Assembly (NCBI GenBank): GCA_016783135.1
Contig: JADHXC010000003.1
Coordinates: 11,605-75,604, forward strand
Reading direction: 5' to 3'
Source of the DNA: Dehalococcoidales bacterium
Lineage (GTDB): Bacteria; Chloroflexota; Dehalococcoidia; Dehalococcoidales; Fen-1064
DNA: 64,000 nt
Numbering within the stretch: position 1 is the stretch's first letter; each line of letters begins with the position of its first letter. The notes beneath the pieces are model-generated. The model had not been told where the DNA came from, searched no databases, and saw only the letters and a list, made by a program, of their open reading frames with translations. Of this stretch, positions 24,258 through 50,850 are shown piece after piece. A program made the translations under genes and the position numbers.

Positions 24258-24323
24258 ACTATCTCATACGCCCAACTAGCCCGTAAGGTCTCAAAAGACG
24301 ATAAACCTGGACCAAATGGATAA
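24258..24323 (-). promoter_or_regulatory. Regulon promoter copy 1
   Basis: TGAGACCTTA-N17-TGAGATAGT on the minus strand. Confidence 0.65.
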
Positions 24324-25038
24324 AATTCTTTCACGTGAAGGGGGTCGCAGGGATACAACCGGCGGCTGCATCCCTGACCCATATTACGGTCGCTTCACAC
24401 CGGTTTCCCTGCTGTGATACCAGAGTGGACAGCGTCTTTCCCCTATCTATTCACCGCCTGATATAGAAACAGGGCACCCAGCTTTGAGAAAAGCAGACCA
24501 ATGGGGTCATCAGAATGAACCAATCGTGTCTTACAGTAGTACCTTACAGGCACCAGAATAGAACGGTAACGATACGAGGAGAGTGATTGTCGCAGGAATC
24601 AGGAGTGTCACGCCGGTACGATAACTCGGTACGAATACGCTCCGAAATAGACAAACGTTGATAGCCAGGGCAATCACCATGATGACAGGAACGGACACGG
24701 AAAGTTATGAAGGGCAGCCAACGGGCTGTCCGAAAGGTATCACCGACGGCTACTCTGGCCATTCGTGCCGATTTACGAGTCAGGTACTGTCTTCCAGCGG
24801 CGGACAACCTGGAAGGATATCCACACTATATGTAAGGAGCGGGATGACTCGGCGTTAGGCCCTTCTGCCCGCCACCTGCGGAGGTAGAGTGCATCTTAGA
24901 GACGAAACAGACTTTAGATAGAGATCAGAAACAAGACATAGAGGTAGCCGGGCTTCTGCCCGGATATAGAGAGTAGAACTCTATAACTTCGGTATCATTC
25001 TCGGGCGCCGCTGGAAAAGAGACGGGAGGAAAAGAATA

Positions 25039-25332
25039 ATGGGTATACCTGTTGCATACTCGGTGAACTGCGGCTTCGGCTGGTTCATTGTCTTACTGGC
25101 TATAGCCGGGTACTTCCTGACATGGAGAAGGATGAGAGAAAGGTGGAGCTTCTGGATTATACTGGCGGTAGGCTGGGCATTCTTTGCCACGGCGCAAACG
25201 CTGATAGCCGCTGGTGTTTCTGCGGGGACCCCCTATCTTGCTGCCATCTGGCTGTCTTCCTTCGTGCTGGTCATTGCCTCCCTGGTGATGCTATTTGCTA
25301 AGCTCACCGGTCGTGTGAAGGAAAAGGAATAG
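25039..25332 (+). CDS. Small three-TM membrane protein
   Basis: SD GGAGG and three hydrophobic segments. Confidence 0.65.
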   Translation: MGIPVAYSVNCGFGWFIVLLAIAGYFLTWRRMRERWSFWIILAVGWAFFATAQTLIAAGVSAGTPYLAAIWLSSFVLVIASLVMLFAKLTGRVKEKE

Positions 25333-25578
25333 CACGGCACCACGGAGACCTGCTGGTGGCCGGTTATGGCCACCAGTCAGAGCAACCGGTGATTCCGGAA
25401 CCCCTCATAGTACCGGGGCATCCGGGGCAGTGGAACTTGGATTATACCAACGAAAGATAGACGGTAACCATTAGAAGAAAGCGCGGGAGGAAACAGCAGT
25501 ATGACCGCCAGGAAACCGTCCAGTCGTGTTGCGATGAAACCGGGTACTGTGTTCCTCCAACCCTGGGTCGGGTAGAAC

Positions 25579-28272: not shown

Positions 28273-28304
28273 GCGAAGATACGAGACGAACCCGGGAGGC
28301 AACT

Positions 28305-28768: not shown

Positions 28769-29905
28769 ATGAGAAGCGAAAGGATTCTGATTGTTGAGGC
28801 TGACAAGCACCTCAGGCTCTCCAGAGTCGACGTTCTCACGCGGGACGGCTACTCCGTTACCGGCGTTGCTACCATTGAAAAGGCGGTCCGGGTAGCCAGA
28901 GAGGAGCCTTTGGACCTTCTCATCATTGGTGGGGAGCAGCCGGTATTGCTGGACGCACTTCCAGGCCAGTTCCCACCGGAGCTGAGTATTCTGATGATAG
29001 TTCCAGAAGATACTGTGGGTCGTATCACCGAGAATGCCGGGGCAGGAATACGCTCCTTCCTGATTCCACCGGTCACACCACGCAGATTGAAGGAAAGGGT
29101 TGCTCGGGTTATCGATAGCGCAAGGCAGGTCAAGGAGAGCATCCGGGGCGAACTCCTTACCTCACCGGAGAACACCAGGCTGTCCGGCAGCGGTAAAAAG
29201 CAGTATCTTCAAATGCAGAGACTGCTCCAGGAAATATCCACAGCCCAGGAGAATGAGCGCCGTCGGGTAGCCGTTGAAATCCACGATGGTGTTGCCCAGT
29301 GGATGGTCGGGGCCTCATACGGTATCAAGGCATGCAGCGTCCTCGTTTCTGAACTGAGACTGGACGACCTGCAGCGAGAACTGGCCGAGACCGGACAGGC
29401 AGTGCAGAGAAGTATCAAAGAGCTGCGTCGCACCATTGCTAACCTGCGCCCGCTCCCGCTGGAGGAACTGGGGCTTGTCGCTGCCGTTCGCAAGGAAGCG
29501 GCAACACTTGCCGAAGATGCTATCATATGTCACACTGAGGTAGACGTAGACCTGCCCAGGCTTTCTATCCCTGAGGAGACTACAACCTACCGGATAATAC
29601 AGGAGATGCTGACCAATGTCAGGCGGCACTCCGGGGCGAGCGAGGTAACCGTGCACATGCAATACCGCGACGGCATGTACTCAGTGGCTGTCAGCGATAA
29701 CGGGCATGGCTTCGCCCCGGAAGAGGTGCTGAACAATGAGATGTCGGTGATGCACATTGGCATTATTGGTATGAAGGAACGTGCCGGACTGCTCGGTGGC
29801 TGCCTGACAATAGACAGCGGTCACGAACAGGGAACCGTTATGCGTTTTTCCTTCCCCGTTTCCATCCGGGAGACTATGAAGGCAACAGCAACAGTACGAG
29901 ATTGA
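28769..29905 (+). CDS. Pseudo-receiver + HisKA_3 histidine kinase
   Basis: Degenerate REC (LLIIGG in place of the phospho-Asp); ERRRVAVEIHDG, QEMLTNVRRHS, DNGHGF. Confidence 0.88.
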   Translation: MRSERILIVEADKHLRLSRVDVLTRDGYSVTGVATIEKAVRVAREEPLDLLIIGGEQPVLLDALPGQFPPELSILMIVPEDTVGRITENAGAGIRSFLIPPVTPRRLKERVARVIDSARQVKESIRGELLTSPENTRLSGSGKKQYLQMQRLLQEISTAQENERRRVAVEIHDGVAQWMVGASYGIKACSVLVSELRLDDLQRELAETGQAVQRSIKELRRTIANLRPLPLEELGLVAAVRKEAATLAEDAIICHTEVDVDLPRLSIPEETTTYRIIQEMLTNVRRHSGASEVTVHMQYRDGMYSVAVSDNGHGFAPEEVLNNEMSVMHIGIIGMKERAGLLGGCLTIDSGHEQGTVMRFSFPVSIRETMKATATVRD

Positions 29906-29916
29906 GGGATGTAGCG

Positions 29917-30558
29917 ATGAGTGAATCACGAACTATTAAAGTACTGCTGGTCGATGACCATCATGTGGTCCGTGAGGGACTGCGGCGGATACTGGAAATG
30001 GACGATGCAATAGACGTTATCGGCGAGGCCAGGAGTGGCGAAGAAGCCGTGGCCAAAGCCGTTGCGCTGTCACCGGACGTCATTGTTATGGACCTCAAGA
30101 TGCCCGGGATGGACGGCATTGCCGCCACCCGCGAGATAAAGGGGAAACTACCCGATGTCAACGTGCTGGTGCTGACGCTTTATGCCGAGGACTTCGTGAA
30201 GCAGGCTATGGAAGCCGGCGTAGCCGGTTACCTGCTCAAGGACAGTGATTCCGAGCAGATAACCAGGGGAGTCCACCAGGTATATGAAGGCCTTTCTCCG
30301 ATTGCACCATCTCTCACCCGGGGTCTGGTGACCGAGTTTGCCAAGCTCAGCCGGAGCAGTCGCTCCTCAGTTCTTACCCCACGGCAGGTAGATATACTCA
30401 AGCTGATTGCCGAGGGGGAGAGCGGCAAGTCTATCGGGGAACACCTCTTCCTGAGCACATCCACGGTGAAGCGGGAGGTACGGCACATCTTTGACAAGCT
30501 GGGTGTGAACGACCGCGCCCACGCTGTCTCCGAGGCTATGAAGCGGGGGCTTCTCTAG
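29917..30558 (+). CDS. NarL-family response regulator
   Basis: VDDHHVVREG, MDLKMP and a LuxR HTH. Confidence 0.95.
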   Translation: MSESRTIKVLLVDDHHVVREGLRRILEMDDAIDVIGEARSGEEAVAKAVALSPDVIVMDLKMPGMDGIAATREIKGKLPDVNVLVLTLYAEDFVKQAMEAGVAGYLLKDSDSEQITRGVHQVYEGLSPIAPSLTRGLVTEFAKLSRSSRSSVLTPRQVDILKLIAEGESGKSIGEHLFLSTSTVKREVRHIFDKLGVNDRAHAVSEAMKRGLL

Positions 30559-30680
30559 TCACATGTCATCTCCTGCACTGTCTTCACCCCGCAGCCTTTC
30601 CTGCCCCGGAATCCTGGTTCGTCTGGGTCATGGCTATGCCCTACAGGTGCTATGTAAATGTTCTCTTTAGCCACGGAAGA

Positions 30681-30746
30681 TTACCTCTTTAGTCCTCTTT
30701 TGCTGACTATTTAGACCTTACAGATGATTGGAGAACATGAGAAAAT
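30681..30746 (+). promoter_or_regulatory. Regulon promoter copy 2
   Basis: TTACCTCTTTAGTCC...TTAGACCTTA-N17-TGAGAAAAT. Confidence 0.7.
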
Positions 30747-30804: not shown

Positions 30805-31488
30805 ATGAATACTGGGCTACTTTCCGATACCATTGCAGCCATAACGGCGGAGAAGACCGGGATTATCCGTGTGCTTGTCGTCGATGACCATCACGTGGTA
30901 CGTGAAGGTCTGCGGCGGATGCTTGAACTGGAAAGCAGCATACAGGTAGTCGGTGAGGCAAGAAGCGGCGAAGAGGCTATCGCCAAGGCTATCTCGCTGT
31001 CACCGGATGTCATCGTCATGGACCTTAAGATGCCCGGAATGGACGGTATCACCGCCACTCGTGAGATAAAACAGAGAATGCCCGATATAGGCATACTGGT
31101 ACTGACACTGTACGCCGAAGATTATGTGAAGCAGGCCGTGGAGGCCGGCGTATCCGGCTACCTGCTCAAGGACAGTGATTGCGAGCAGATAACACGCGCC
31201 ATAGAAGAAGTATATCGAGGCCTTTGCCCGATAGCCCCCTCTCTCACCCGGGAACTGGTCATGGAGTACGCCGAGCTCAGTCGGACCAGCCGGTCTTCGA
31301 TACTGACCAAACGACAGGTCGAGATACTGAAGCTGATTGCCGAGGGGGAGAGCGGCAAGGAAATCGGCAACCGTCTTTTCATCAGCACCTCCACCGTGAA
31401 GCGGGAAATTCGCCAGATTCTTGCCAAACTCAAGGTAAGCGACCGCGCCCAGGCAGTATCCGAGGCCATCAAGAGAAGGCTCATCTAG
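30805..31488 (+). CDS. NarL-family response regulator, tandem paralog of 29917..30558
   Basis: REC and HTH segments nearly identical to the upstream gene. Confidence 0.95.
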   Translation: MNTGLLSDTIAAITAEKTGIIRVLVVDDHHVVREGLRRMLELESSIQVVGEARSGEEAIAKAISLSPDVIVMDLKMPGMDGITATREIKQRMPDIGILVLTLYAEDYVKQAVEAGVSGYLLKDSDCEQITRAIEEVYRGLCPIAPSLTRELVMEYAELSRTSRSSILTKRQVEILKLIAEGESGKEIGNRLFISTSTVKREIRQILAKLKVSDRAQAVSEAIKRRLI

Positions 31489-31538: not shown

Positions 31539-31631
31539 CTGCCATCCACCTGTTACCCCCTTCCTGACCTGATGAGGTCAGCCCGTTTGCCCCCCGGTGC
31601 TACCGCATTGCCCCACACAAGGCCACGAAAC

Positions 31632-31697
31632 CTGCTTGTTTGGTTCCCTATTCCTGTCTACTAAGACCTTACGCCCTACTCATATGCATGAGACAAT
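31632..31697 (+). promoter_or_regulatory. Regulon promoter copy 3
   Basis: TAAGACCTTA-N17-TGAGACAAT. Confidence 0.65.
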
Positions 31698-31858: not shown

Positions 31859-34282
31859 ATGTATCTTGCAGTGGTGTATCGGAGAATGGAGGTTTTGAGT
31901 AGCGGAATGACCGAGCTTCAGAAGACGGAGAGAGATTACCGGCGGATAGACCGGAACTCCCTGTTCCTGCTGCTCCTGCTGACCGTACCGGCAGGAGTGA
32001 TGGCGGTAGTCCTCTACCTGTGGCCGGATGCAGTGTGGACCGCCCCGGTACCTTATAGTGCGGTGGGAATACTCGGCTCATTTGCCGCCCTGCTCCTGGC
32101 GGTCTTCCTCTTCGCACGATACCGGACACAACCTCGAATCCTCTATCTCAGCGCCGGTCTCCTGGCTATGGGCATAATCGATGGCTTCCATGCCGTCTCA
32201 ACACCGGGGTCCACGGAGTTCGTCTGGCTGCATTCAATCGCCGGCATCATCGGTGGGACCTTCTTCGTTCTCTACGCCCTCGCCGAAACAACGAGTCTCC
32301 GTGTACCGTCGGTCAAGGTCACAGCCAGGGGAGTCGGCGGGTTGCTCGGTGGGTTAGCCGCGGCCGCATTAATCTGCAGCGTTCTCCCGATGGTTCTTTC
32401 GGACGGTCTGCCCGCCGTGGCACAGGATGGCCAGCTTACCGCCGTTGCCTGGACCTTGAACGCCGTACCGGCGGCACTCTTTTTCATTGCCGGTGTCAGC
32501 CTGTTTCGCCAGTACCGCAAGACCGGCGCTAATGAGCTATTCCTGCTGACCGCGATACTTATCTTCCTGTTCCAGGCATGCGAGGTTTTCTACTTCGCCA
32601 CGTTATGGGGTGTCATCTGGTGGTTCTGGCAGGCAATGCGACTGGTGGTCTATATGGCTGTTCTCGCCTATGTTCTCAAGGAGTACATACAGACCAGCGA
32701 GTCGCTATCGGTCGAGATTGAGGAACGCACCAAGGCGGTACAGGCCCTCAGGGTGGCAGAGGAGGACTGGCGTAACTCCTTCAACTCACTGGAAGAGGTA
32801 ATGCTCATCATTGACAGGGACTACAACATCGAGAAGGTGAATAGCAGCGGGCTGGTACTCCTCAAGAGAACTCAACGAGCCGTCACGGGGCGGAAATGCT
32901 ACCGCGTTATGCGCCATATGGATAAGCCCTGCGGATTCTGCCCCATCCGGCACACGCTGGAGAACAAGACCGTAGAATCCGTAGAGCGGTACGACGAGAT
33001 CTATAAACGGCATTACCACATGAAGAGTGCCCCGATACTTGATGAAAACGGCGAAATCACCAAGGTTGTCTTTTCCATGAGTGATATCACGGAACGAATC
33101 AACGCCGAGGCCAAGGAGAAGATACTGCAGAGGGAGCTCAGCCTGACCAGCCGCCTGGCTTCTATCGGCGAGGTAGCCGCCGGGATTACTCACGAGATAA
33201 ACAACCCGCTGACCGGCGTGATTGCCTTCGCCCAGATGCTGATGCAGATGGATGTTCCCAAGAATATGAGAGAAGCGGTGGAGGTGATTCACAACGGGGC
33301 AAACCGGGTGGTCGGGATTGTGGATAAGCTCCTCACCTTCGCACGCCGTAACCGTCCTGATAAAGAGTACGCAGACATCAACGACATCCTGACCAACACC
33401 CTGGCAATGCGCTCCTATGAAATGCGTATCAACGACATCAACGTATCGTACGACCTCGATGAAGACCTGCCTAAGACCATGGCCAATATCGGTAAGCTCC
33501 AGCAGGTATTCCTGAATATCATCGTGAACGCAGAACAGGCAATGGGAAGGGCACACGACGGGGGAGAGTTATCCGTGAGGACCGAGAGAATCGACGACAA
33601 GATACATATTTCCCTGGCCGATGATGGTCCCGGGGTTCCCGAAGACATCATCGATAAGCTGTTTGACCCCTTCTTCACGACGAAGATAGATGACGGTGGG
33701 ACAGGACTGGGACTGAGTATCTCCTACGGAATTGTCAAGGAGCATGACGGCAGGATATACGTCAGGAGTGTTCCCGACAAAGGGGCTACTTTCGTGGTCG
33801 ACCTGCCGATAGTGGCCGCAGTCCAGCAGCCGGAGCAGGAAGAGTTCTCTGTCCAGGAGTCGGCCAGGGTGACCTCGGCAAGGATACTGGTGGTGGATGA
33901 TGAGCCACACATCTGCCGTGCCCTGGACAGGCTGCTAACCCACGAGGGGCACAAAGTAGACACCGCAGGCAATGCTAAAGTGGCCCTGCGCAAGATGTTA
34001 AAAACGCAATATAACCTTATCCTGCTGGACATCAGGATGCCAGGCATGAGTGGTATCGAGCTCTACCAGCAGATGAAGGAGGCAGTCCCGGCATTACAGC
34101 AAAGGGTAATCTGTGTAACCGGGGACGTTATCAGTGCCAAGAACAAGGCCTTCCTGGAGGAATCAGGAATACCTTGTATAGTCAAGCCATTCGGCGTTGA
34201 TGAACTAATGAGTTTGGTAAAACAAGTACTGGGAGGAGAGACTGAAGATGCACAAATCACGTATTCTCATAGTGGACGATGA
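31859..34282 (+). CDS. Hybrid histidine kinase (multi-TM MASE3-like sensor, PAS, HisKA, HATPase, REC)
   Basis: About eight TM helices with MGIIDGFHA/WLHS, PAS, THEINNPL, PFFTTK and a C-terminal REC; exact start uncertain. Confidence 0.92.
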   Translation: MYLAVVYRRMEVLSSGMTELQKTERDYRRIDRNSLFLLLLLTVPAGVMAVVLYLWPDAVWTAPVPYSAVGILGSFAALLLAVFLFARYRTQPRILYLSAGLLAMGIIDGFHAVSTPGSTEFVWLHSIAGIIGGTFFVLYALAETTSLRVPSVKVTARGVGGLLGGLAAAALICSVLPMVLSDGLPAVAQDGQLTAVAWTLNAVPAALFFIAGVSLFRQYRKTGANELFLLTAILIFLFQACEVFYFATLWGVIWWFWQAMRLVVYMAVLAYVLKEYIQTSESLSVEIEERTKAVQALRVAEEDWRNSFNSLEEVMLIIDRDYNIEKVNSSGLVLLKRTQRAVTGRKCYRVMRHMDKPCGFCPIRHTLENKTVESVERYDEIYKRHYHMKSAPILDENGEITKVVFSMSDITERINAEAKEKILQRELSLTSRLASIGEVAAGITHEINNPLTGVIAFAQMLMQMDVPKNMREAVEVIHNGANRVVGIVDKLLTFARRNRPDKEYADINDILTNTLAMRSYEMRINDINVSYDLDEDLPKTMANIGKLQQVFLNIIVNAEQAMGRAHDGGELSVRTERIDDKIHISLADDGPGVPEDIIDKLFDPFFTTKIDDGGTGLGLSISYGIVKEHDGRIYVRSVPDKGATFVVDLPIVAAVQQPEQEEFSVQESARVTSARILVVDDEPHICRALDRLLTHEGHKVDTAGNAKVALRKMLKTQYNLILLDIRMPGMSGIELYQQMKEAVPALQQRVICVTGDVISAKNKAFLEESGIPCIVKPFGVDELMSLVKQVLGGETEDAQITYSHSGR

Positions 34283-34943
34283 TATCGGTGTCGTGAAATC
34301 AGTCCGTGCCAATCTAAAGGCACGGAACTGGGAGACATTGGTCGCCATGGATGGTGTCGAGGCGCTCGAAGTCATCGGACGGGAACAGCCTGACCTGATT
34401 CTTCTGGACATAACCATGCCCAAGATGGACGGCTTTGAGGTCTGTCGACAGGTCCGGGAGTGGTCACGGGTGCCGATTATCATGCTCAGCGCCCGCCGTA
34501 ATGTCGAAGAGAAGGTCAGGTGCCTGAATATCGGTGCCGATGACTACATCACCAAACCCTTCGGTGTGAACGAACTGACAGCAAGAGTCACGGCGGTACT
34601 GCGCCGCACCGGTGAATCAGGCGTAGAGCCGTCCGCATCCAGCTTCAGTAGCGGCGACCTTTCCATCAATTTCGTAGAAAGACGAGTAACCATCGACGAT
34701 AGGGAAATCAAACTCACGCCAACGGAATACAACCTGCTGCAGGAACTGGTGCTTGGCGCAGACAGGGTCTTCTCCCACTCTACGTTACTTGGCAAGGTGT
34801 GGGGACCGGAGTACGTCAGCGAAAGGGAGTACCTGCACGTCTTCGTAGGGCGTCTACGGAAGGAAATTGAATCAGACCCGACACATCCACAGTATATTAT
34901 CACCGTGCCCGGAGTGGGCTACAAGTTCCAGACCGCATCCTGA
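34248..34943 (+). CDS. OmpR/PhoB-family response regulator (KdpE-like)
   Basis: GADDYITKPF, LTPTEYNLL, VWGPEY and TVPGVGY motifs. Confidence 0.95.
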   Translation: MHKSRILIVDDDIGVVKSVRANLKARNWETLVAMDGVEALEVIGREQPDLILLDITMPKMDGFEVCRQVREWSRVPIIMLSARRNVEEKVRCLNIGADDYITKPFGVNELTARVTAVLRRTGESGVEPSASSFSSGDLSINFVERRVTIDDREIKLTPTEYNLLQELVLGADRVFSHSTLLGKVWGPEYVSEREYLHVFVGRLRKEIESDPTHPQYIITVPGVGYKFQTAS

Positions 34944-36423: not shown

Positions 36424-36600
36424 CTAGTACTACATCACCAGTGCCGCGCCAGCAGAGTAGCCCTGCTTCGTTACGAGCCCGCCGCACCAGTAACAGTCCA
36501 TCCGGTGTGCCCTGCTTATCCACCCCCGGAGCATGTGACCCGCACGTATCATGCTGCTGGCCCCTGGTACTATCACCACGCCCGCTTGAGCCAAGGAAAC

Positions 36601-38821: not shown

Positions 38822-38860
38822 TACTTATGTACCTCCTTCCTGTATCGTTTCGGAGAACAC

Positions 38861-40381: not shown

Positions 40382-40383
40382 CG

Positions 40384-42126: not shown

Positions 42127-42155
42127 TGAGCCTATCTCCTCCCGACGCCCTATGG

Positions 42156-43901
42156 CTAGAGCAGACCATCCTGCTGGGCCTGGCCCAGCACCCGCAGGAC
42201 CTCATAGAAATCGGTAATGCCTCGCTCCTTGTGCAGCTTGGCGAATATTCGGGCCCGCTTGTCTATTTCAGCGTATATCCTCCGCTTTGCACGACTTGGT
42301 ATGCCCAGCATGGTAGCAATCTTGTGCTCCATGACGTGGCTATTCATGTAACCAGTGAACTCAAAGGTATCCGTAGTCTCATCCAGCTTGAAGGCCTCGA
42401 CGATATCAAAAGACTGCGTGGGAGGGTCGAAGCCTACTATCTCATCTATCTCGGTGACACGCCGGACTGTGCCACCGTTGGGGAGCTTGATGGAGCGCAT
42501 GAGAATGGCCACGTTAAGGTTATCCATATATGACTTCGGTACCAGAATCGGGGCGGCGGTCATGCGCTGAATCAGCTTCTCCATGGTAGAGGCATGGAAG
42601 GTGGACATAACGGCGTGCCCGGTCTGCATTGCCTGGAAGGCAACGTTGCCCTCCGGCCCACGAATCTCCCCCACGATAATCTCATTGGGGCGCTGCCGCA
42701 GTGCCGCCTTGAGCAGGTCGAATGTGGTCACCGCGCCGGTGCTGTCTTCCAGTTTGTCCGATTGTATCACTTCCCTTATCCAGTTCTCGTGGGGTACCTG
42801 GAGCTCCGGGGTATCCTCGATAGTGACTATCTTGGCTTTGGGAGGAATGAAGGTGGTCAGTGCGTTGAGCATACTTGTCTTCCCGGAAGCCGATTCACCG
42901 GCAATGAAAAGGTTCATGCCATTCGGGATTACCAGTGACAGGTAGCCGAGCATCTGGTAGTTGAGGGTGCCGAAGTCCACCAGATCGAAGATGGATATTG
43001 GTACTGCGCTGAACTTGCGGATGCTGAAGTTGGAGCCCCTCTTGGAGACATCTCGACCGTAGACGATGTTGATACGGGCCCCCACGGGAAGCGTGGCGTC
43101 GGCAATGGGTGACCTGTAGGTTACCGGTTTTCCTATCTGCTCGGCCAACCTCAGGACAAACACATCCAGGTCATCCAGTGAAGAAAATGATATTGGACTC
43201 TTACAACCCTTGAATATCTTGTGCTCGATAAAGAGATGCCCCACACCGGAGCAGCCGATGTCCTCAATGTATGAGTCGGACACAAGAGGCTCGATATCAC
43301 CCAGACCGAGTTTATCCCGGATGAACAGATACTTGATACCCTCGAGCTCACGCTCGGTAAGCCTGACCTTGGTCAGCTTGGGCTCACCCTTGCGAAGCAA
43401 GCCTGTTCGCCTACCAGTACTGGTGGGCTCTTCCGACTGGCTGCCGAGGGCCGTCATCTGTTCAACGTAGTTGGTCAGCTGCTGCTTCTTATCTCCATCG
43501 GCATCGAAGTTGGGAAGCCGGTCACCAAACTGAATGCAACGACTTTCCACCTGGGACATTATATTGCCAAGGTCCATGGTGAGAGTCGGCTCAACGATAA
43601 TGTAGTGATTACGGGTGTCCTTATCGTCAGTCATCACGTGGGCGAAAATACCGTCGCCTAGCGGATAAATGATGTTCGGCTCCTTGATATCTTCCATCTT
43701 TTTGGTAAGCCTGGGGTAGTAACGGGGAACACCCACCTCCTCGATTGGCAGCCAGTGCAGGTATTCGAAGAGATGAGGATACTCTTCCGCAACCTCCTGT
43801 AACGGGGGCGCGAAAGTCTGGAAGAACTCGCAGTTATGAAAGCCTTTCCCGTGGTCGTCTACTTTATTCTCCCTGGTGAAAGGGAGGACTATCTCCGCCA
43901 T
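42156..43901 (-). CDS. arlI: Archaellum ATPase ArlI (FlaI), copy 1
   Basis: YPHLFEY, IIYPLGDGIFAHV, GESASGKT, GEIRG and AMQTGH motifs. Confidence 0.9.
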   Translation of the reverse strand: MAEIVLPFTRENKVDDHGKGFHNCEFFQTFAPPLQEVAEEYPHLFEYLHWLPIEEVGVPRYYPRLTKKMEDIKEPNIIYPLGDGIFAHVMTDDKDTRNHYIIVEPTLTMDLGNIMSQVESRCIQFGDRLPNFDADGDKKQQLTNYVEQMTALGSQSEEPTSTGRRTGLLRKGEPKLTKVRLTERELEGIKYLFIRDKLGLGDIEPLVSDSYIEDIGCSGVGHLFIEHKIFKGCKSPISFSSLDDLDVFVLRLAEQIGKPVTYRSPIADATLPVGARINIVYGRDVSKRGSNFSIRKFSAVPISIFDLVDFGTLNYQMLGYLSLVIPNGMNLFIAGESASGKTSMLNALTTFIPPKAKIVTIEDTPELQVPHENWIREVIQSDKLEDSTGAVTTFDLLKAALRQRPNEIIVGEIRGPEGNVAFQAMQTGHAVMSTFHASTMEKLIQRMTAAPILVPKSYMDNLNVAILMRSIKLPNGGTVRRVTEIDEIVGFDPPTQSFDIVEAFKLDETTDTFEFTGYMNSHVMEHKIATMLGIPSRAKRRIYAEIDKRARIFAKLHKERGITDFYEVLRVLGQAQQDGLL

Positions 43902-43959
43902 GGAATGAATCCCCAGTCCGCCTGCATTGACCAGCAGGCAGTGTTAGACCTTCGCGCTA

Positions 43960-44691
43960 CTAGACCTTTGCTCTGGAGAGAGGCATAATCTTCATACCTA
44001 TCTCCGGTTCTACGTCAAAACTCAGTATGTTTCCCGTGGTCTGGGTGGCCCCCCTGACCTTGGCCACCTCAAGGGTCTTGACCAGCCTGTCACCCACCCT
44101 CTCGATGGCCAGCTTGAAGTGGGCATCGCATACGGAACGGATACGTACCAGTAAGTCCTGCTCGAAGGCATAGGTATGAGCAACGTTGATTATCGTTTTA
44201 CCCCGGTCACAGAGGGTCTTACAACGCTCGAAATAGGCCAGACACTCCCCACCGGTGGCGCCAGCCGCTATCTGAGTGATGGAATCCATGATGGGCAGGT
44301 CAAAATCCTGAAGGTCCTCGATAGTGTTCAGAATGGACTGTAGAGCGACGGCGGCATTGGACCTCACCAGTGAAGGCCTCATGGTATAGATTTTTATCCG
44401 GCCAAGCAGCAGATAGTCCGTTATACTCAGACCGAGGCTGTCCATCTGGGTGACCAGGCTCTTCACCGTGTTCTCCGTGGTGAAGAGGACTACTTTGAAA
44501 TCGTCCTTCAGGGAGCCCCATATCATCTGCTGGCAGAGCACCGATTTCCCCGCATCGGACTGACCCTCCACCAGGGTGAGGGAGCCAATCGGGATACCGC
44601 CACCCAGCTTTTTATCAATCTCACCGTGGCCGGTGGAGATGACGTCCTTCTTTGCTTCTTCCTGTACTTCGTCCAGTTCAACCTCTGGCAT
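43960..44691 (-). CDS. arlH: ArlH (FlaH) KaiC-like ATP-binding protein
   Basis: LGGGIPIGSL, GQSDAGKS, TTENT, IMDS and F.VEP.IG motifs. Confidence 0.9.
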   Translation of the reverse strand: MPEVELDEVQEEAKKDVISTGHGEIDKKLGGGIPIGSLTLVEGQSDAGKSVLCQQMIWGSLKDDFKVVLFTTENTVKSLVTQMDSLGLSITDYLLLGRIKIYTMRPSLVRSNAAVALQSILNTIEDLQDFDLPIMDSITQIAAGATGGECLAYFERCKTLCDRGKTIINVAHTYAFEQDLLVRIRSVCDAHFKLAIERVGDRLVKTLEVAKVRGATQTTGNILSFDVEPEIGMKIMPLSRAKV

Positions 44692-44709
44692 GGCTACCTC
44701 CCGATATGC

Positions 44710-46317
44710 CTAGTATCTCGTTACCAGGCACTGCGCTGTGACACCATTGGGCGTGGATATCGTTATCCTTGCGGTCGTCCCGCACTCTGTGCCCGGGTTC
44801 AGGACGATGACCAGCTTCATCTTCTCCTCAGGGTTGAGTATGCCCGGGTCGTAGACCTCGGCGTTCCCGTTAGGCAGGTAGATACCAGCCACCATCCACT
44901 GGTTATCGCCGGGGGGGGTGTCCGTCGTGTATTCCAGATAGGTTGCATAGTCGGTACCACTATTCTGGTACTCGACAATAACATCCCACCTGGCGAACTC
45001 GGCCAGGTCTGTCTGGCCCTCGTTGGTTACCGCCAGATGGAAGTTGCCGTAGAGCTGGATTATATGTGGTGTATCGCCACCGGACGTATCGTACTCCAGG
45101 GAGTCCACGACCGTACCCGTAATCCGGCCACTGTCGGCAATCTCAACCGTCCTCACTTCGCCGTCGTCGCCGCCATTAAGGTAGGCTATGGCATACACAG
45201 TATCAGAGACTGCCACGATGCTGGGGTTGAATGTGTTCCCGGTGTCAAACTCCAGGCTGTCTATCACCGTATCCGTTATCTGGCCATCGGTGGCTATCTC
45301 AACAGTCTTCAGGTAACCGTCATCACCACTACCGCGGTAGGCTATGGCATATAGGTTGCCCGAGGCATGGACCATGCTGGGTGTTCTGCCTCTGTCAGTG
45401 TCAAACTCAAGATTGTCTATAACCGTGTCCGTAATCTGGCCATCAGTGGCTATCTCAACCGTCTTCAAGCGACCGTCATCGTCACCATCAGCGTAGGCTA
45501 TGGCGTATATGTCACCTGAGACATGGATTATGCTGGGCTCCAGCCAGCAGTCGCCGGTGTCGAACACAAGGGTGTCGATAACCGTCTCCGTAATCTGGCC
45601 ATCAGTGGCTATCTCAACCGTCTTCAAGAAACCGTTCCATCCATCACCACCGTAGGCTATGGCATATATGTCACCTGAGACATGGATTATCATGGGCTCC
45701 CAGCTGTTGAGGGTGTCGAACTCCAGGCTGTCTATAACCGTGTCCGTAATCTGGCCATCAGTGGCTATCTCAACCGTCTTCAAGAAACCGTCATCGCCAT
45801 CACCAGTGTAGGCTATGGCATATATGCCACCTGAGACATGGACTATGCTGGGCTGGTAGCCACGAGACGTGTCAAACTCCAGGCTGTCTATCGCCGCATC
45901 CGTGATCTGGCCAGCGGCGGTGATCTCAACCGTCCTCACTTCGCCGTTTTCACCGGAGTCACGATACGCTATGGCATACACATTGTCGGACACATGGATG
46001 ATGCTGGACTCGTAGCTGTTGTCGCCGTCGAACTCCAGGCTGTCCGTCACTGCTCCCGCGATTTCACCCCCCGTGGTGATGCCGAGTGTCGCTACGAAAC
46101 CATCTTCGCCGCCCCCCTGATAGGCTATGGCACACACGATGTCAGACGCCCACGACGACGCGTCAATTTCGGTCAACCTTATTTCGCTGGCCTGCTGCTC
46201 CATCTCCCTCAGCGAGTCAGCCACCGAGGTCGCTGCATCAAAGGCGTTAAACGTTAGCGTCACCACGCCCACAATGAGCATGGCGATACATATCAGGGAG
46301 ACAAGCGCTGTTTCCAT
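44710..46317 (-). CDS. arlF: ArlF (FlaF)-like stator protein with a seven-repeat insertion
   Basis: N-terminal TM and helix; C-terminal V.NEG...ILNPEE...ISTPNG archaellin-like domain; located between arlG and arlH. Confidence 0.75.
   Translation of the reverse strand: METALVSLICIAMLIVGVVTLTFNAFDAATSVADSLREMEQQASEIRLTEIDASSWASDIVCAIAYQGGGEDGFVATLGITTGGEIAGAVTDSLEFDGDNSYESSIIHVSDNVYAIAYRDSGENGEVRTVEITAAGQITDAAIDSLEFDTSRGYQPSIVHVSGGIYAIAYTGDGDDGFLKTVEIATDGQITDTVIDSLEFDTLNSWEPMIIHVSGDIYAIAYGGDGWNGFLKTVEIATDGQITETVIDTLVFDTGDCWLEPSIIHVSGDIYAIAYADGDDDGRLKTVEIATDGQITDTVIDNLEFDTDRGRTPSMVHASGNLYAIAYRGSGDDGYLKTVEIATDGQITDTVIDSLEFDTGNTFNPSIVAVSDTVYAIAYLNGGDDGEVRTVEIADSGRITGTVVDSLEYDTSGGDTPHIIQLYGNFHLAVTNEGQTDLAEFARWDVIVEYQNSGTDYATYLEYTTDTPPGDNQWMVAGIYLPNGNAEVYDPGILNPEEKMKLVIVLNPGTECGTTARITISTPNGVTAQCLVTRY
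45050..46145 (-). repeat. Intragenic ~156-bp (52-aa) tandem repeats
   Basis: Seven AIAY-containing units of the type DSLEFD...YAIAY...LKTVEIATDGQITDTVI; boundaries approximate. Confidence 0.92.
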
Positions 46318-46319
46318 CT

Positions 46320-46787
46320 CTAGTCCACACTGAAGGTTGTTTCGTCAAAGATACCGTTAGGGACCACTATCTTGAATATATGAGTGCCCGTGGCGGGGGC
46401 GGACGCCAGGTGAATTGTTACCCTGACGGTAACCGTCGGCTTCCACTGGGTGTAGCTGCCCTCGAACTGGTAGTCCCAGTAGGGGGGGGTATCGCCACCG
46501 TAGGTCACATGGTAGAAGTCGCCCTCGGGCCCGAAGAAGATGTCGCTCCGCTCGACACTATTGATATCTACTGTACCAATGTTCTTTATCCAGGCATCCA
46601 CCCCCGTGGAGTTGTCCGCTACCTGAATGATGTCAATACGACACTCAATACGGTCGCTTACCTTGCTGGTGGCGCTGGTCACCGCCCCGCTGCTTTCAAT
46701 GATTGCGGGGTAGAAACCGTTGAATACCGCGAGAGAAGCTACCACCCCGCCTATCATCAGCAGGATGGTAACAATGACTTTATCCAC
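46320..46787 (-). CDS. arlG: ArlG (FlaG)-like protein
   Basis: N-terminal TM; I.II...WIKNIG, W.P..T and VPNG motifs. Confidence 0.8.
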   Translation of the reverse strand: MDKVIVTILLMIGGVVASLAVFNGFYPAIIESSGAVTSATSKVSDRIECRIDIIQVADNSTGVDAWIKNIGTVDINSVERSDIFFGPEGDFYHVTYGGDTPPYWDYQFEGSYTQWKPTVTVRVTIHLASAPATGTHIFKIVVPNGIFDETTFSVD

Positions 46788-47601
46788 TATCGTTTCCCTG
46801 GCACAGAATAGAGAGCAGGGCTATCTCGAACTTGGTGGCCTTTCCGAGAATGCTGTCAAGCTCCTTGAGCGAGGTCAGATAGTCCCGGGTTGTTACCTTA
46901 CCCTCATACTCGCCAGGGGTGGCATAAATGAACCTGGTCAGGACATCCTTGAGCTCCAGGTCGAGAAATCCAACCATCTCGGAGATATCAAGGATTGACT
47001 GCGCCCTCTTGCTTCCCAGCCGTTTCACTACGTCCGCCACCCAGTCAGCCAGGCTGGATATTGTAGCCAGGTCTATCTGTCCTTTGGTACCGCCATTTCC
47101 TCCAGACTCAAAATTCATCTCAAATTCTTTTACTGGTCGCCATGCCCTCATCACCTCCTCATGGGCTGTTTCATCAGTGGCGACAACGACCGGTCCGGAG
47201 ACCGGCTCAGATTCAGTAGTCATCTCAGGTTCGGACTTCGGTCCAGGCTCTGGAAGCGGCTGTTGCTCGGTGGTTAGTTCTGGCTTATAGAGAGGTTCCT
47301 GCGTATGCGAAGACGACGCTTCCCGGGCTGGTTCTGGCGTGTGGGTCGGTTCGTCTGCGACTGAAGGTTTGTTGCTTGTATGGTTTTCCGGTCCGGCCTT
47401 ATGTGACCCGTTACCCGTGGGCTGAGACTGCGGTGGGTTGCTGATAACAATGTGCTGCTCGGGAAACGGTGGCAGTTCCCGGCTGACAGGGTTCTCGAAG
47501 TTCAGGTAACTCTCCCTGAGGTCGAGCAGGACCGCCTGGACCTCGTTCTTCAGTATCTTGATTTCGTCCTCTAGCTGAGTTACCTTATCATTCAGCTCCA
47601 C
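46780..47601 (-). CDS. Coiled coil + ArlD/E (FlaD/E)-like C-terminal domain
   Basis: DWVADVVKRLG...ILD..EMVGFL...TRDYLTSL resembles the W..FL...G...LDYY..IGWI...DH..SL pattern of ArlD/E; lies between arlB and arlG. Confidence 0.6.
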   Translation of the reverse strand: MELNDKVTQLEDEIKILKNEVQAVLLDLRESYLNFENPVSRELPPFPEQHIVISNPPQSQPTGNGSHKAGPENHTSNKPSVADEPTHTPEPAREASSSHTQEPLYKPELTTEQQPLPEPGPKSEPEMTTESEPVSGPVVVATDETAHEEVMRAWRPVKEFEMNFESGGNGGTKGQIDLATISSLADWVADVVKRLGSKRAQSILDISEMVGFLDLELKDVLTRFIYATPGEYEGKVTTRDYLTSLKELDSILGKATKFEIALLSILCQGNDSG

Positions 47602-47622
47602 TTGCCTACCTCCATTATCCGA

Positions 47623-47661
47623 GTCTCAGTGCCCCCGGGACCTCCCCGGAGACACTGAGAC
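47623..47661 (-). terminator. Strong hairpin after the archaellin genes (partial terminator or mRNA stabiliser)
   Basis: GTCTCAGTGTCTCCGGG/CCCGGGGGCACTGAGAC stem without a U tract. Confidence 0.55.
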
Positions 47662-47719
47662 CTGGGTGTGCATCTCTTCCGCAGCCCCCGACTTACTTTC
47701 TCACTGTTGCTGAACGAAC

Positions 47720-48295
47720 CTACTGCAGGTCTATCACCTTCCCTAGGTAGGCAGGTAGAGTCCTCTGAATGGTGAGAGTGGCGCCGGTGGGCGGGATGAC
47801 CTGAAGCGTAAATCCTTCGTAGATCTCCCGGGTGGCTGTGGCCGGAATCGTGACAGTCACTACGTGCTGCTCGTCGAACTCCATCATATTGGCCGAGCCG
47901 CGCTCCGTGCTGCCCCCGCTGATGGCGCTGGACCAGGTCACATTTTCCGAATGCACCTCATCGTCGAAGTAATTAATGACGATGGAATCCATATCCACTT
48001 TCTCGTCCTGCATTGTTAGACCGACGCTGAAGATGACCTGCTCGAGTTCACTCTGGTTGGGGCTCAGGCCGAGTACGGAACCCTGGATCTCCATTGTGGC
48101 CTGGGCTGACTCTAGGCCCTGGTAGACTGTCGCCTTGCCCCGCTCTGCCGAGAAGATACCGGCGGAGAGGACACTGTACGCCAGTACTGAGGCCACCGTG
48201 ACGAAGGCAATCAGGATGATGGCTGTCTCCAGCCCGGTCATACCTCTCTGACCACGGTACAGGTTCGTTAGCGACCTGAAAATCCTGTTCAACAT
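47720..48295 (-). CDS. arlB: Archaellin ArlB (FlaB), copy 2
   Basis: Class III signal peptide RGQRG|MTGLETAIILIAFVTVASVLAY; C-terminal VIPPTGA...R.LP...IDL. Confidence 0.92.
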   Translation of the reverse strand: MLNRIFRSLTNLYRGQRGMTGLETAIILIAFVTVASVLAYSVLSAGIFSAERGKATVYQGLESAQATMEIQGSVLGLSPNQSELEQVIFSVGLTMQDEKVDMDSIVINYFDDEVHSENVTWSSAISGGSTERGSANMMEFDEQHVVTVTIPATATREIYEGFTLQVIPPTGATLTIQRTLPAYLGKVIDLQ

Positions 48296-48317
48296 CTCTC
48301 TCCATCCCTTCCGGGAC

Positions 48318-48893
48318 CTACCGCAGGTCCATTACTTTGTCGAGGTAAGCCGGCAGGCTCCTCTCAATGGTGACAGTGGCGCCGGTGGGCGGGATAACCT
48401 GGAGAGTGAACTCTTCGTAGGCCTCTCGGGTTGCCGTGGCCGGTATCGTCACCGTGAACACGAACTGCTCGTCGCCCTCAATTATGACGGTCGAGCCACG
48501 CTCGGTGCTGCCCCCACTGATGACGGCTGTGAAGGTCACGTTCTCGGAGTGAATTTCCTCGTCGAAGTAGTTGATTACGATGGCTCCCGTGTCGACCTTC
48601 GTGTCCGGAACTGAAACGGCAGCGGTGAACTGCACCGTCTCCAGCTCACTCTGGTTCGGGCTCAGGCCCAGTACGGAGCCAACGAGTTCCATCGTGGATT
48701 CCGCTGATTCAAGACCCGAGTAGACTGTCGCCTTACCTCTTTCCGCCGAGAAGATACCAGCTGACAGGACGCTGTAGGCGAGGACTGATGCAACCGTTAC
48801 GAAGGCAATCAGGACGATGGCTGTTTCCAGTCCCGTCATGCCCCGCTGACGCCGGTGCATGCTCTTTAGAGCTTTGGTTAATTTGTGGTACAT
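48318..48893 (-). CDS. arlB: Archaellin ArlB (FlaB), copy 1
   Basis: RRQRG|MTGLETAIVLIAFVTVASVLAY; close paralog of 47720..48295. Confidence 0.92.
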   Translation of the reverse strand: MYHKLTKALKSMHRRQRGMTGLETAIVLIAFVTVASVLAYSVLSAGIFSAERGKATVYSGLESAESTMELVGSVLGLSPNQSELETVQFTAAVSVPDTKVDTGAIVINYFDEEIHSENVTFTAVISGGSTERGSTVIIEGDEQFVFTVTIPATATREAYEEFTLQVIPPTGATVTIERSLPAYLDKVMDLR

Positions 48894-49015
48894 TTCCTAC
48901 TCCTTTTTACTACTAATGGATAACCTCTTATGGAATCATGTCCAATAACAGCCTTGACTATCACATCCTTCTGTACCTCCTTCACTAACCTCATCTGCAC
49001 GTGGCACCCTCTGGC

Positions 49016-49444
49016 CTATCCGCAGCTTTGCTGCAACGAAAGTGTGTAAGGTGACCACTGGCGTATTCTGTATATTATTGAAAGTAGTTCCTCGCTGCCG
49101 GCACCGGGTGAAAAGAGACCGGCCGCTCCGGCCTTGATTGCCGGCACCAGGTTCTCTGCTATATTCTCCGTAATGATGACCACCCTGGCAGACAGCCCTT
49201 CCCTGGTGATTGCGCGGGTAGTCTGAATACTGTCCATTCCCGGCATTTCACTATCGGCAAGCATCACTATCACGTCCGGGGAGAGGTGTCTGGCGGCTGC
49301 CAGGGCTTCCTCACCACTGCCTACCTCACCGGCTATGATGATGCCTATTCCAGTACTCAACGTCTGGCGCAACCTCCCCGTGGTGGCCTCATCGCCACCG
49401 CCGTCCACTACCAGTACACGGATAATATCGTCAGTATTCATCAT
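49016..49444 (-). CDS. Atypical stand-alone receiver domain (NarL-like, no HTH)
   Basis: IRVLVVD, SGEEAL and PDVIVMLAD; the phospho-Asp position and conserved Lys are altered. Confidence 0.75.
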   Translation of the reverse strand: MMNTDDIIRVLVVDGGGDEATTGRLRQTLSTGIGIIIAGEVGSGEEALAAARHLSPDVIVMLADSEMPGMDSIQTTRAITREGLSARVVIITENIAENLVPAIKAGAAGLFSPGAGSEELLSIIYRIRQWSPYTLSLQQSCG

Positions 49445-49544: not shown

Positions 49545-49610
49545 AGTGTCGCATAAGGTAATATTCGTTGTAAGGACTAACTGGACAAGAACAAAGGGCT
49601 AAAGAGGTAA
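49545..49610 (-). promoter_or_regulatory. Regulon promoter copy 5 (archaellum operon)
   Basis: TTACCTCTTTAGCCC...TTAGTCCTTA-N17-TGCGACACT; 33 of 42 positions identical to copy 2 by hand alignment. Confidence 0.72.
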
Positions 49611-49650
49611 CGTTATTCTGCGTCTTGAGGACTACCCGATAGCCTCCCGG

Positions 49651-49668: not shown

Positions 49669-49855
49669 GGAAGAGTCATCGTACGCACTAATGGGCACAC
49701 AATTGCAGGTTGCTTCCAGGAAAAAGAACGCCGGCCAGGGTACTTGATTTCACCCCGACTAATGACTTAACATCAGACTGACAGCTTGAGATGCTACCGC
49801 AACGCAACGAGGCGGCCATCGGTTCAACACGCCTGGCGGGAGTAAATAGAGATAG

Positions 49856-50710
49856 ATGCGAAACCGGAAGATGGTGATTGACAACCGCCGGGCCATGGTG
49901 TGCATGCTCACCATAACGTTGCTGCTGTTCCCTGTGGTTGCCTTCACCACGGGCACGCTGCGCATCATCCTGGCCCTGCCCCTGGCACTTTTCTTCCCCG
50001 GCTATACCCTCCTCTCCGCCCTGTTCCCACGCCGGGAGGATATGGACAGCTTTCGGCGCATGGTCTTCAGCGTTGGATTGAGTATAGTTGTTCTACCTGT
50101 TAGCGGGCTGGTCCTCAACTACACACCATGGGGAATAGAGCCTTTCCCCATCCTGGTTAGCATATTCCTCTTCATTCTAATCACGTCCTCAATCGCCTGG
50201 TACCGCCAGCGGGAACTACCGGAGCCAGAGCGGCTGAGTTTCACACTGGAGATACGGCTCTCCGGTTGGAAGGACATGAGCGGGCTCACCAGAACCCTGG
50301 CCGTCATCATGCTGGTGGCCGTCCTGACCACCATCGGCAGCCTGGGCTATGCCATGACCACCCCGGGGCAGGGCGACAGGTACTCCGAGTTCTATATTAT
50401 GGGACCGGAGGATGATGCTGCAGAGTACACGTACGAGACCACGGCAGGGCAACCGGTATACCTTACAATGGTTATCGTCAACCACGAACATGAACCACTG
50501 GGCTACCGTGTGGAGATGGTGAGTGGCGGTGACTCAATTCGCAGTCTTACCACAGGGACCATTGACCACGACGAAGAATGGCAACGCGAAGTTGACTTCG
50601 TGCTCAGCGTGCCCGGCGAGAACCGGAAGGTCGAGTTCTACCTGTACACCGATAACTCATCCGAACCGTACTTCGATGAACCGCTTCATATCTATATAGA
50701 CGTCCGCTGA
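49856..50710 (+). CDS. DUF1616-like membrane protein
   Basis: LFFPGY.LL.ALFP, SVGLSI, LNYTPWGI, SEFYI.G and VNHE motifs. Confidence 0.8.
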   Translation: MRNRKMVIDNRRAMVCMLTITLLLFPVVAFTTGTLRIILALPLALFFPGYTLLSALFPRREDMDSFRRMVFSVGLSIVVLPVSGLVLNYTPWGIEPFPILVSIFLFILITSSIAWYRQRELPEPERLSFTLEIRLSGWKDMSGLTRTLAVIMLVAVLTTIGSLGYAMTTPGQGDRYSEFYIMGPEDDAAEYTYETTAGQPVYLTMVIVNHEHEPLGYRVEMVSGGDSIRSLTTGTIDHDEEWQREVDFVLSVPGENRKVEFYLYTDNSSEPYFDEPLHIYIDVR

Positions 50711-50784
50711 CCCTCAGGTCGAACGGTTTGACCCTCTCACGGAACTCTGATTTACCACATGAGCATGAGTTCTCTGGCTCACAA

Positions 50785-50850
50785 TTACCAATTTGGCTCA
50801 CCATCATGAACCTTCTATGTCTTACCGATGACCCCGCCTGATGCCAGAAT
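50785..50850 (+). promoter_or_regulatory. Glycosylation operon promoter
   Basis: GGCTCA-N6-TGAACC, then 29 nt, then TGCCAGAAT; the same layout occurs upstream of aglB. Confidence 0.6.

Follow-up and report, generated by a model that had tools for sequence, protein, structure and literature searches.

A Rare Promoter-Like Motif Precedes Archaellum, Glycosyltransferase and Two-Component Signaling Genes in a Dehalococcoidales Bacterium

Introduction

This study concerns a promoter-like motif, two short boxes held at a fixed distance, that recurs in a 64,000-nucleotide (nt) stretch of DNA from a Dehalococcoidales bacterium (GenBank assembly GCA_016783135.1, contig JADHXC010000003.1; contig C3:11605-75604 of what we call genome G000, an assembly of 2.28 Mb in 87 contigs, 95% complete). 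That whole stretch is referred to here as the window. It carries an archaellum operon together with several two-component regulatory genes and two glycosyltransferase genes, and copies of the motif stand at the 5' ends of genes in each of these groups.

The main text of a 2025 study established archaella in Chloroflexota and described archaellum clusters in Dehalococcoidales as well as arlB expression that was raised on motility plates (PMC12488501). That main text makes no use of the terms promoter, transcription, NarL, LuxR or response regulator, and its supplementary list of 244 clusters may include the archaellum loci of this family, though, to go by the main text, not their promoters; the main text of a preprint on chemosensory coupling likewise makes no use of promoter, transcription, NarL or LuxR (bioRxiv 10.64898/2026.05.11.724246). 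None of the titles and abstracts returned by full-text literature searches on the archaellum in “Chloroflexota” or “Dehalococcoid” dealt with how the archaellum is regulated in Bacteria, and both the cargo and the regulon described below are unreported in the literature that we searched.

Results

The Archaellum Locus and the Sites in the Window

The archaellum locus contains two Arch_flagellin genes (E = 3e-21 and 2e-19), an ArlG-like gene, KaiC, two T2SSE genes and T2SSF (Table 1). Near it lies what we call the module, in the order RR139, receiver-HisKA_3 kinase, NarL218, motif site, NarL227, motif site, hybrid kinase and OmpR-type regulator. The organism is bacterial, because its genome has four sigma-70-family genes and no match to TBP (4 of 4 archaeal control genomes were matched). 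This supports a first, sequence-only reading of this DNA, which had inferred an archaeal machine rewired to bacterial transcription control.

That reading had listed six copies of the motif in the window. Each of them is where it had been placed, exactly 17 nt separate the boxes every time, and copies 2 and 5 are indeed identical at 33 of 42 nt, counted from -30 to +11 relative to box 1. Two sites were absent from its list: one at 63709 on the plus strand, before a PAS kinase paralogue, and one on contig C81, before a sugar operon of GHMP kinase, epimerase and SIS isomerase. The downstream genes had been assigned correctly overall, with two corrections: site 1 stands before a 127-amino-acid (aa) protein followed by MoxR and DUF58, genes that the reading had not named, and the “cheY” behind site 4 is a stand-alone receiver, for which that name is only a label because a search of the genome, 95% complete, found no CheW domain.

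Table 1. Motif sites and the genes around them. Coordinates are those of the window unless a contig is named; scores are those of the 61-nt matrix; leader is the distance from the second box to the start codon, counted by hand for sites 4, 6 and 7.
Feature	Coordinates	Strand	Score (bits)	Leader (nt)	Details
Promoter site 1	24258..24338	minus	53.4	29	site at 24293, boxes TGAGACCTTA/TGAGATAGT; CCTTAC first C 24288; TGAGATAGT 24266-24258
Promoter site 2	30666..30746	plus	65.5	58 (to ATG)	site at 30711, boxes TTAGACCTTA/TGAGAAAAT; CCTTAC 30716; TGAGAAAAT 30738-30746; best in genome
Promoter site 3	31617..31697	plus	55.7	161 (to ATG)	site at 31662, boxes TAAGACCTTA/TGAGACAAT; CCTTAC 31667; TGAGACAAT 31689-31697
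Promoter site 4	36586..36666	plus	26.2	119	site at 36631, boxes TTAGACCTTA/TGCGACAAT; CCTTAT 36636; TGCGACAAT 36658-36666; upstream array weak; conserved in G002
Promoter site 5	49545..49625	minus	57.4	100 (to ATG)	site at 49580, boxes TTAGTCCTTA/TGCGACACT; CCTTAC first C 49575; TGCGACACT 49553-49545
Promoter site 6 (weaker, degenerate)	50770..50850	plus	20.6	49	site at 50815, boxes CTATGTCTTA/TGCCAGAAT; TCTTAC 50820; TGCCAGAAT 50842-50850; 7th in genome
Promoter site 7 (weak)	63659..63739	plus	16.6	~74	TCTTAC 63709; TGCGAGAAT 63731-63739; next open reading frame leaves the window end
Matrix match on C81	C81:9857	minus	37.8		
Matrix match on C10	C10:1957	minus	16.8		probably within a gene
Operon behind site 1	21088..24228	minus			127-aa protein without Pfam family 23845-24228; MoxR AAA ATPase 22370-23380; DUF58 21088-22314
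Candidate input pair	28769..30558	plus			receiver-HisKA_3 kinase 28769-29905; NarL218 29902-30558; no motif upstream
NarL227	30805..31488	plus			receiver + GerE/LuxR helix-turn-helix; proposed activator, own gene behind motif
Hybrid kinase operon	31859..34943	plus			hybrid histidine kinase 31859-34282 (MASE3-PAS-HisKA-HATPase-REC); OmpR-type regulator 34248-34943
Receiver and partner	36786..37892	plus			stand-alone receiver 36786-37193; 192-aa protein 37314-37892; behind site 4
Archaellum operon	38018..49444	minus			RR142 receiver 49016-49444; arlB x2 48318-48893, 47720-48295; 273-aa gene; ArlG-like gene; 535-aa repeat protein; arlH (KaiC); arlI x2; arlJ; 267-aa gene; behind site 5
Glycosyltransferase genes	50900..53456	plus			two GT2 50900-51655, 51676-52674; methyltransferase 52695-53456; behind site 6

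Rarity of the Motif

The pattern TWAGWCCTTA-N17-TG has four matches in the window, where 100 shuffles gave 0.02 on average, and the core CCTTAY-N16-TGNGANANT matches six times in the 2.28-Mb assembly (five in the window, one on contig C81) and not once when reversed. A genome-wide motif scan, as the sequence-only reading had proposed, was run with a 61-nt matrix trained on 17 non-redundant sites from this genome and its relatives; the scores of these training sites are inflated, because all 17 had passed the regular expression, and site 6 lies outside the training set. The matrix gave nine matches of at least 16 bits in the whole genome, none in the reversed genome and none in any of five Markov-2 simulated genomes. 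Eight of the nine are intergenic and co-oriented with the next gene, 29-161 nt ahead of its start codon, and seven of the eight credible sites fall inside the window. The motif is rare and lies at gene 5' ends, and with nine matches against none in the controls the idea that it is equally common before unrelated genes therefore fails.

A two-block matrix with spacers of 15-18 nt found no extra site in this genome; its reversed control yields eight matches of 12-14.5 bits, so that scores below about 15 bits are noise. Several candidates were set aside: C10:1957 lacks AAT and is followed by an open reading frame that by eye resembles the interior of a dehydrogenase, C50:14065 (12.0 bits) and C51:57204 (12.9 bits) are at noise level, and C11:421210 of the related genome G021 lies at or within a tRNA-synthetase gene.

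Could the motif be non-regulatory, i.e., a dispersed repeat, the end of a mobile element, a transcribed RNA structure or a chance match? The similarity of copies 2 and 5 could suggest duplication, but almost no matches arise in shuffles, in the reversed genome or in simulated genomes, each credible site is at the 5' end of a gene, and the boxes persist across genera around unrelated spacers. Further, RNAalifold found no consensus structure in 28 sites on either strand (energy 0.0), and no Rfam family reached its gathering score anywhere in the window. We consider this explanation extremely improbable.

Promoter Architecture

The 28 non-redundant sites compared here all have A at -11 and T at -7, having been selected with a matrix that itself favors those two bases, and TG stands one base upstream in 25 of the 28. 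The second box behaves like an extended -10 element, as had been proposed; the G said to replace T at -12 is preferred (G 22, A 3, C 2, T 1 of 28) and not fixed. Promoters before the tRNA genes of this genome are canonical (TTGACA-N17-TAnAAT, often TGn-extended, as TGnTAnAAT), and the second box differs from these housekeeping promoters mainly at -12. At the -35 position the motif reads TTAC(n)(n) where the tRNA promoters have TTGACA, a poor -35, and a scan with the sigma-70 consensus found no promoter at these sites.

CCTTAC belongs to a longer conserved array that lies over and upstream of the -35 region, in keeping with the activator box proposed earlier and making the array a putative binding site. 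Among the aligned sites the conservation extends about 50 nt upstream of CCTTAC, with the consensus ..aaGccAaa.AA..TTatCT.tT.GGcTCtc.tTTa.TAtCC.TTTAGACCTTAC. Its direct self-similarity peaks at a shift of 22 bp (4.09), followed by 10 bp (2.54) and 23 bp (2.31). The best dyad, GTCT-N4-AGAC, is weak and centered -5.5 from CCTTAC, which would put it at -42.5 if transcription starts 7 nt past the second box, the predicted start. Orthologous sites recovered with the matrix have CCTTTT, CCTTCC or TCTTAC in place of CCTTAC. The array does not form a NarL 7-2-7 operator, which we take to be an inverted TACYYMT with the arms 2 bp apart: it reads ..TGTCTA-TT-TAGACCTTAC, with arms of just 4 bp (GTCT/AGAC). 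A direct repeat of TnAGAC in both boxes, 27 bp apart, was also considered and dropped, since box 1 retains AGAC only in genera g1 and g4.

An array in this position could instead be a repressor operator on a weak constitutive promoter, with the genes coming on upon release: the proximal unit overlaps the -35 region, where repressors act too, and an extended -10 can function without a -35. Against this, a promoter with no usable -35 and a -12 that is not T would be expected to have low basal activity, the usual sign of activator dependence; the array extends well upstream along a single helical face, as is typical where polymerase is recruited; and the sites leave the -10 and the predicted start free. 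Repression seems to us a rather improbable explanation.

Sigma Factors

Region 3, the part of a sigma factor that reads TG, is found in only one of the four sigma-70-family proteins of this genome, RpoD. The other three are of the extracytoplasmic function (ECF) type, two of them with a downstream gene that is a candidate anti-sigma factor, and the 61-nt matrix found no motif upstream of any ECF gene in the genome. One ECF gene is widespread: orthologues with 51% identity or more occur, by estimate, in most of 61 related genomes, including the motif-less G008, G013 and G026. G006 (92% complete) has five sites and only RpoD and that widespread ECF, and G011 (a single contig) has RpoD and four further sigma-r2 matches, one of them in a frame of 405 aa and the rest in frames of 180-188 aa; region 3 was not searched there. 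No sigma gene was found whose distribution matches that of the motif.

These results bear on the proposal, also made in the sequence-only reading, that an alternative sigma factor reads the motif: CCTTAC and TGnGAnAAT would then be the -35 and -10 of a dedicated sigma, and the upstream conservation would be secondary. Two conserved blocks at a fixed spacing of 16 nt, the first of which matches TTGACA poorly, fit such a promoter. However, the only sigma with region 3 is RpoD, the three ECF genes have no motif upstream and the widespread one ignores the motif distribution. Orthologous sites also tolerate A, C or T at -12, and a sigma factor alone leaves some 50 conserved upstream bases with a 22-bp period unexplained. 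The proposal is therefore disfavored, and we give it a slim chance.

Conservation in Relatives and Metagenomes

Archaellin homologues occur in 19 of the 61 related genomes, and the strict pattern matches 54 times across 20 of them, as against 11 matches for the reversed-pattern control. Orthologous sites, in which the boxes are kept and the 16-nt spacer has diverged, come from genera g1, g4, g5, g6, g7 and g8 and from family f36. The module is conserved in G002, G005, G007, G011, G012 (where the locus stops just past the second site) and G021, and from the first site onward in G006, at a contig start; the hybrid kinase and OmpR pair lies behind a site in G002, G005, G006, G007, G011 and G021. 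As in G000, the module adjoins the archaellum operon in G021.

The motif stands directly ahead of arlB in G006, G009, G012 and G021, with a weaker TCTTAC...GATAAT in G016 and G027 and a 21.0-bit site in G007. Other targets recur as well. The G007 orthologue of site 6, in a different genus, has the full consensus before the orthologous GT2 gene, with a spacer that is visibly orthologous; G011 has a site before a small Zn-ribbon protein (77 aa), MoxR and DUF58, matching site 1 except that the first gene differs from that of G000; in the G001 orthologue of site 7 the first box reads CCTTAC, and the PAS kinase behind it shares 64% identity with the gene at 25579; and the G001 orthologue of the C81 site is 69 nt from the start codon. 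In G011 the motif also precedes a 7TM-GAF kinase with an OmpR-type regulator, and in G058, which belongs to a different family, it precedes a CheC/X-CheD-CheY-CheY-CheB operon. By eye, variants that the matrix missed stand before NarL227 and kinase genes in G009 and G058, with one base more in the spacer, or TAATAGAAT, or TGAGAAGAT.

A metagenome scan with TTAGACCTTAC-N16-TGNGANAAT gave 58 matches on 53 contigs, some of them probably from the same populations as the genomes and so not fully independent. A homologue of a window regulon gene lies within 600 nt downstream of 35 of the 58 (NarL 13, hybrid kinase 12, ArlB 4, RR142 3, and one each of GT2, the 127-aa protein and the PAS kinase), and other matches are followed by phosphomannomutase and a sugar nucleotidyltransferase, by GT2 and a HAD phosphatase, or by further kinase/regulator pairs. 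Of the 23 matches without a recognized gene, about 15 are by eye in unrelated AT-rich context, which fits a rough chance estimate, and several are cut by contig ends.

The Candidate Regulators

The tandem NarL regulators, the other reader that had been proposed, are the best candidates for binding the motif: their clade co-occurs with it, and the narL227 promoter is the top-scoring site in three genomes, G000 (65.5 bits), G011 (64.0) and G002 (62.9). Genes of the NarL227 clade, taken as those with 58% identity or more (the match next in rank has 50%), are present in 15 of the 61 genomes, 13 of which have archaellin and 13 at least one strict match. These 15 genomes hold 46 of the 54 strict matches; the other 46 genomes hold eight, which is the control rate, and none of 300 other genomes of the class has more than two.

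Both proteins have a Response_reg domain (E = 1e-29 for the protein at 30805 and 6.5e-28 for that at 29902) and a GerE domain (5.6e-16 and 4.5e-15). They are paralogues, 72-75% identical, with the residues STSTVKRE, which we take to be those of the recognition helix, common to both GerE domains. The Asp of VIVMDLKMP, assigned by eye as the phospho-acceptor, is invariant in 8 of 8 aligned clade members, and the HisKA_3 kinase gene abuts that of NarL218. The nearest solved structures to NarL227 are VraR (E = 2e-43), NarL, DevR and DesR; among NCBIfam models it falls below every equivalog cut-off (MadR 176 bits against 300, NarL 152 against 250), and a scan of a genome collection returned mostly generic NarL-family genes, with 1 of 80 loci close (70% identity).

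The regulator that binds might instead be the OmpR/PhoB-type protein of the module, head-to-tail on 22-bp units that replace the -35 in the manner of PhoB. The array is most strongly symmetrical as a direct 22-bp repeat and shows a lesser peak at 10 bp, its left arm (CTGTCTA/CTGACTA) resembles what we take to be a PhoB half-site, and the ompR gene itself sits behind a site and has been kept in the module of G002, G005, G006, G007, G011 and G021. On the other hand, the two halves within a 22-bp unit do not repeat each other directly, and NarL227 is the more conserved protein between genera (82-86% vs. 76-77%), with the best site before its own gene. Further, G027 has a weak 20.1-bit site before arlB and a NarL-clade gene next to the archaellum operon, whereas a search of that genome for the OmpR regulator and the hybrid kinase turned up no orthologue of either (best 42%, or a partial match). 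Binding by the OmpR-type protein is, in our view, unlikely.

Genes and Leader Sequences Behind the Sites

The receiver behind site 4 is 63% identical to a CheY encoded in the G058 che operon. Its gene is probably co-transcribed with that of the 192-aa protein, which belongs to no family and has C-terminal paired CxxC motifs, zinc-ribbon-like, and homologues of which adjoin archaellum genes in G002 and G058 (33%). The main text of the 2025 study gives CheF as absent from Chloroflexota (PMC12488501), and the 192-aa protein could connect receiver and motor. Between site 4 and the receiver gene, the leader contains a perfect 17-nt tandem repeat, ACGGTGAAGCCGTCAGA, in 4.2 copies (36685-36756); G002, of the same genus, has no exact copy of the unit and by eye about two degenerate ones, and copy number is therefore variable within the genus.

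Sites 2 and 3 are each followed by a further -10-like box 20-22 nt 3' of the first (TGAGAGAAT at 30759-30767 and TGAGACGCA at 31709-31717) and by short inverted repeats directly past the predicted start. The 161-nt leader of the hybrid kinase, 3' of site 3, includes a terminator-like hairpin, CCACGAAATCGTGG, with a T-run (31771-31794), which is kept in G002 and may be an attenuator. Directly after the NarL227 stop codon there is a tandem repeat, CCCATGC / CCCATGCCCCATGGC (31498-31543). The 127-aa first gene of the site 1 operon has by eye an apparent winged-helix segment.

Within the archaellum operon, two full-length arlI (T2SSE ATPase) paralogues lie in tandem (40384-43901), an arrangement also seen in G002 and G021 and in G007, G009 and G058 (one copy cut by the locus end). 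The 535-aa gene (44710-46317), which has no Pfam family, contains 156-nt (52-aa) tandem repeats at 45239-45938, and its G002 orthologue is 57% identical as against 91-96% for its neighbors. A third archaellin gene lies outside the cluster (contig C63:6616-7176), preceded by an open reading frame that by eye looks receiver-only. The motif-less archaellum cluster of G011 (locus L068:9750-10170) is preceded by a small open reading frame that by eye resembles an excisionase- or MerR-type helix-turn-helix protein.

Discussion

Most likely, a single shared promoter of bacterial type switches on the archaellum, sugar-decoration and signaling genes of this organism by way of the neighboring two-component regulator. 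More specifically, we favor, with a probability of roughly 0.6, the reading that the motif marks a lineage-specific class of activator-dependent promoters that are read by RNA polymerase with the housekeeping sigma-A, and that the array is bound by the tandem NarL regulators. The second box would be an extended -10 (TG-n-[G>A,C,T]AnAAT), and CCTTAC would be at most a vestigial -35 (TTAC..) and chiefly the end nearest the promoter in a protein-binding array some 55 bp long, which consists of 22-bp units, each with a weak GTCT-N4-AGAC dyad. Phosphorylated NarL227 and/or NarL218 would bind the array, and from the proximal unit, near -42.5, the regulator would recruit the polymerase.

The module would amplify itself, because narL227 and the hybrid-kinase/ompR operon have its strongest sites, and would then activate the archaellum operon, the CheY-like receiver and its partner gene, further sensor kinases and the MoxR/DUF58 operon. 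The glycosyltransferases and the sugar-nucleotide operon would be switched on as well, probably for glycosylation of archaellin. On a broader view, the self-amplifying cascade (HisKA_3 kinase with NarL218, then NarL227, then the hybrid kinase with the OmpR-type regulator) may have been recruited as master switch of a horizontally acquired archaeal motor. It would act through a private promoter class, kept silent without the activator by the non-T at -12 and the missing -35, and would also co-ordinate archaellin glycosylation and a CheY-like receiver with its possible motor adaptor; the chances of this fuller picture we judge to be about even.

Several observations weigh against these proposals, some of them against the promoter model itself. 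The -10 assignment and the -42.5 geometry are predictions from sequence only, and the invariance of CCTTAC and TG is partly a matter of ascertainment, because the regular expression fixed core positions of the training sites. The preference for G at -12 in 22 of 28 sites, where housekeeping promoters have T, would be more natural for a dedicated sigma factor, and the array scores 1.29 for dyad symmetry but 4.09 as a direct 22-bp repeat, a pattern that would fit an OmpR-type binder too. Because related genomes are not independent, the co-occurrence counts make the support for the NarL clade look stronger than it is.

Others speak against a strict archaellum regulon. The genomes of genus g4 have kept the module and four sites each, and in one of them, G011, no site at the divergent archaellum loci (36% archaellin identity) reaches 10 bits, which suggests that its archaellum locus was separately acquired or is separately controlled. 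G005 has the module and no archaellin match, and in G000 itself the archaellin gene on contig C63 has no site (best matrix score -14.8). Thus, the regulon belongs to the regulator module and not strictly to the archaellum, and the module is older or broader than its archaellum cargo, because genus g4 has the module without a site at the archaellum.

The proposed mechanism, a response regulator that activates weak promoters, is of an ordinary and familiar kind, and the interest comes from the cargo. The NarL-family regulator DevR/DosR of Mycobacterium tuberculosis binds tandem Dev boxes, the proximal one overlapping the -35; the present system would be like it in family, in having at least two phased sites with the proximal one over the -35, in sigma-A dependence and in (predicted) autoregulation, and unlike it in box sequence, which is unrelated, in its 22-bp units with a weak dyad and in a cargo of motility rather than dormancy genes. 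E. coli NarL and NarP use 7-2-7 heptamer sites (TACYYMT). The receiver and GerE helix-turn-helix, the HisKA_3 kinase partner and paired half-sites with a short spacer are common ground with these proteins, whereas the half-site here (GTCT-N4-AGAC, TTAGACC) does not match TACYYMT and the direct 22-bp period outweighs the dyad. The cell-envelope regulators VraR and LiaR, the closest sequence relatives with structures, also have autoregulated operons with sites near the -35, yet NarL227 scores under all NCBIfam equivalog cut-offs and the targets are others. PhoB acts from pho boxes, 22-bp units that replace the -35; the likeness in unit length and in the place of the proximal unit is relevant only if the OmpR-type regulator binds, and the unit halves here, unlike those of pho boxes, are not direct repeats.

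As to motility, bacterial flagellar hierarchies run from FlhDC or FleQ to sigma-28 promoters (TAAA-N15-GCCGATAA). There, too, a single promoter class links a motility machine with accessory and signaling genes, but the motif is unrelated, no group-3 sigma gene was found in this genome, and control is here proposed to lie with a two-component activator. In archaea, the archaellum regulators EarA (Methanococcus) and ArnR/ArnR1 (Sulfolobus) act on BRE/TATA promoters. The machine controlled is the same, as would be the place of an activator upstream of the arlB promoter, whereas this genome has no TBP and its regulators are of unrelated families; the control layer has therefore been replaced after transfer.

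How a machine that evolved under TBP and TFB comes to be expressed in a bacterium is thus given a concrete and testable answer for one Dehalococcoidales family. This answer comprises defined promoters with a predicted start site, a set of candidate regulators, and targets that tie the motor to glycosylation genes and to uncharacterized partner proteins. If true, this would be the first transcriptional regulon described for the archaellum in Bacteria and a worked example of a transferred archaeal machine wired into a bacterial signaling network.

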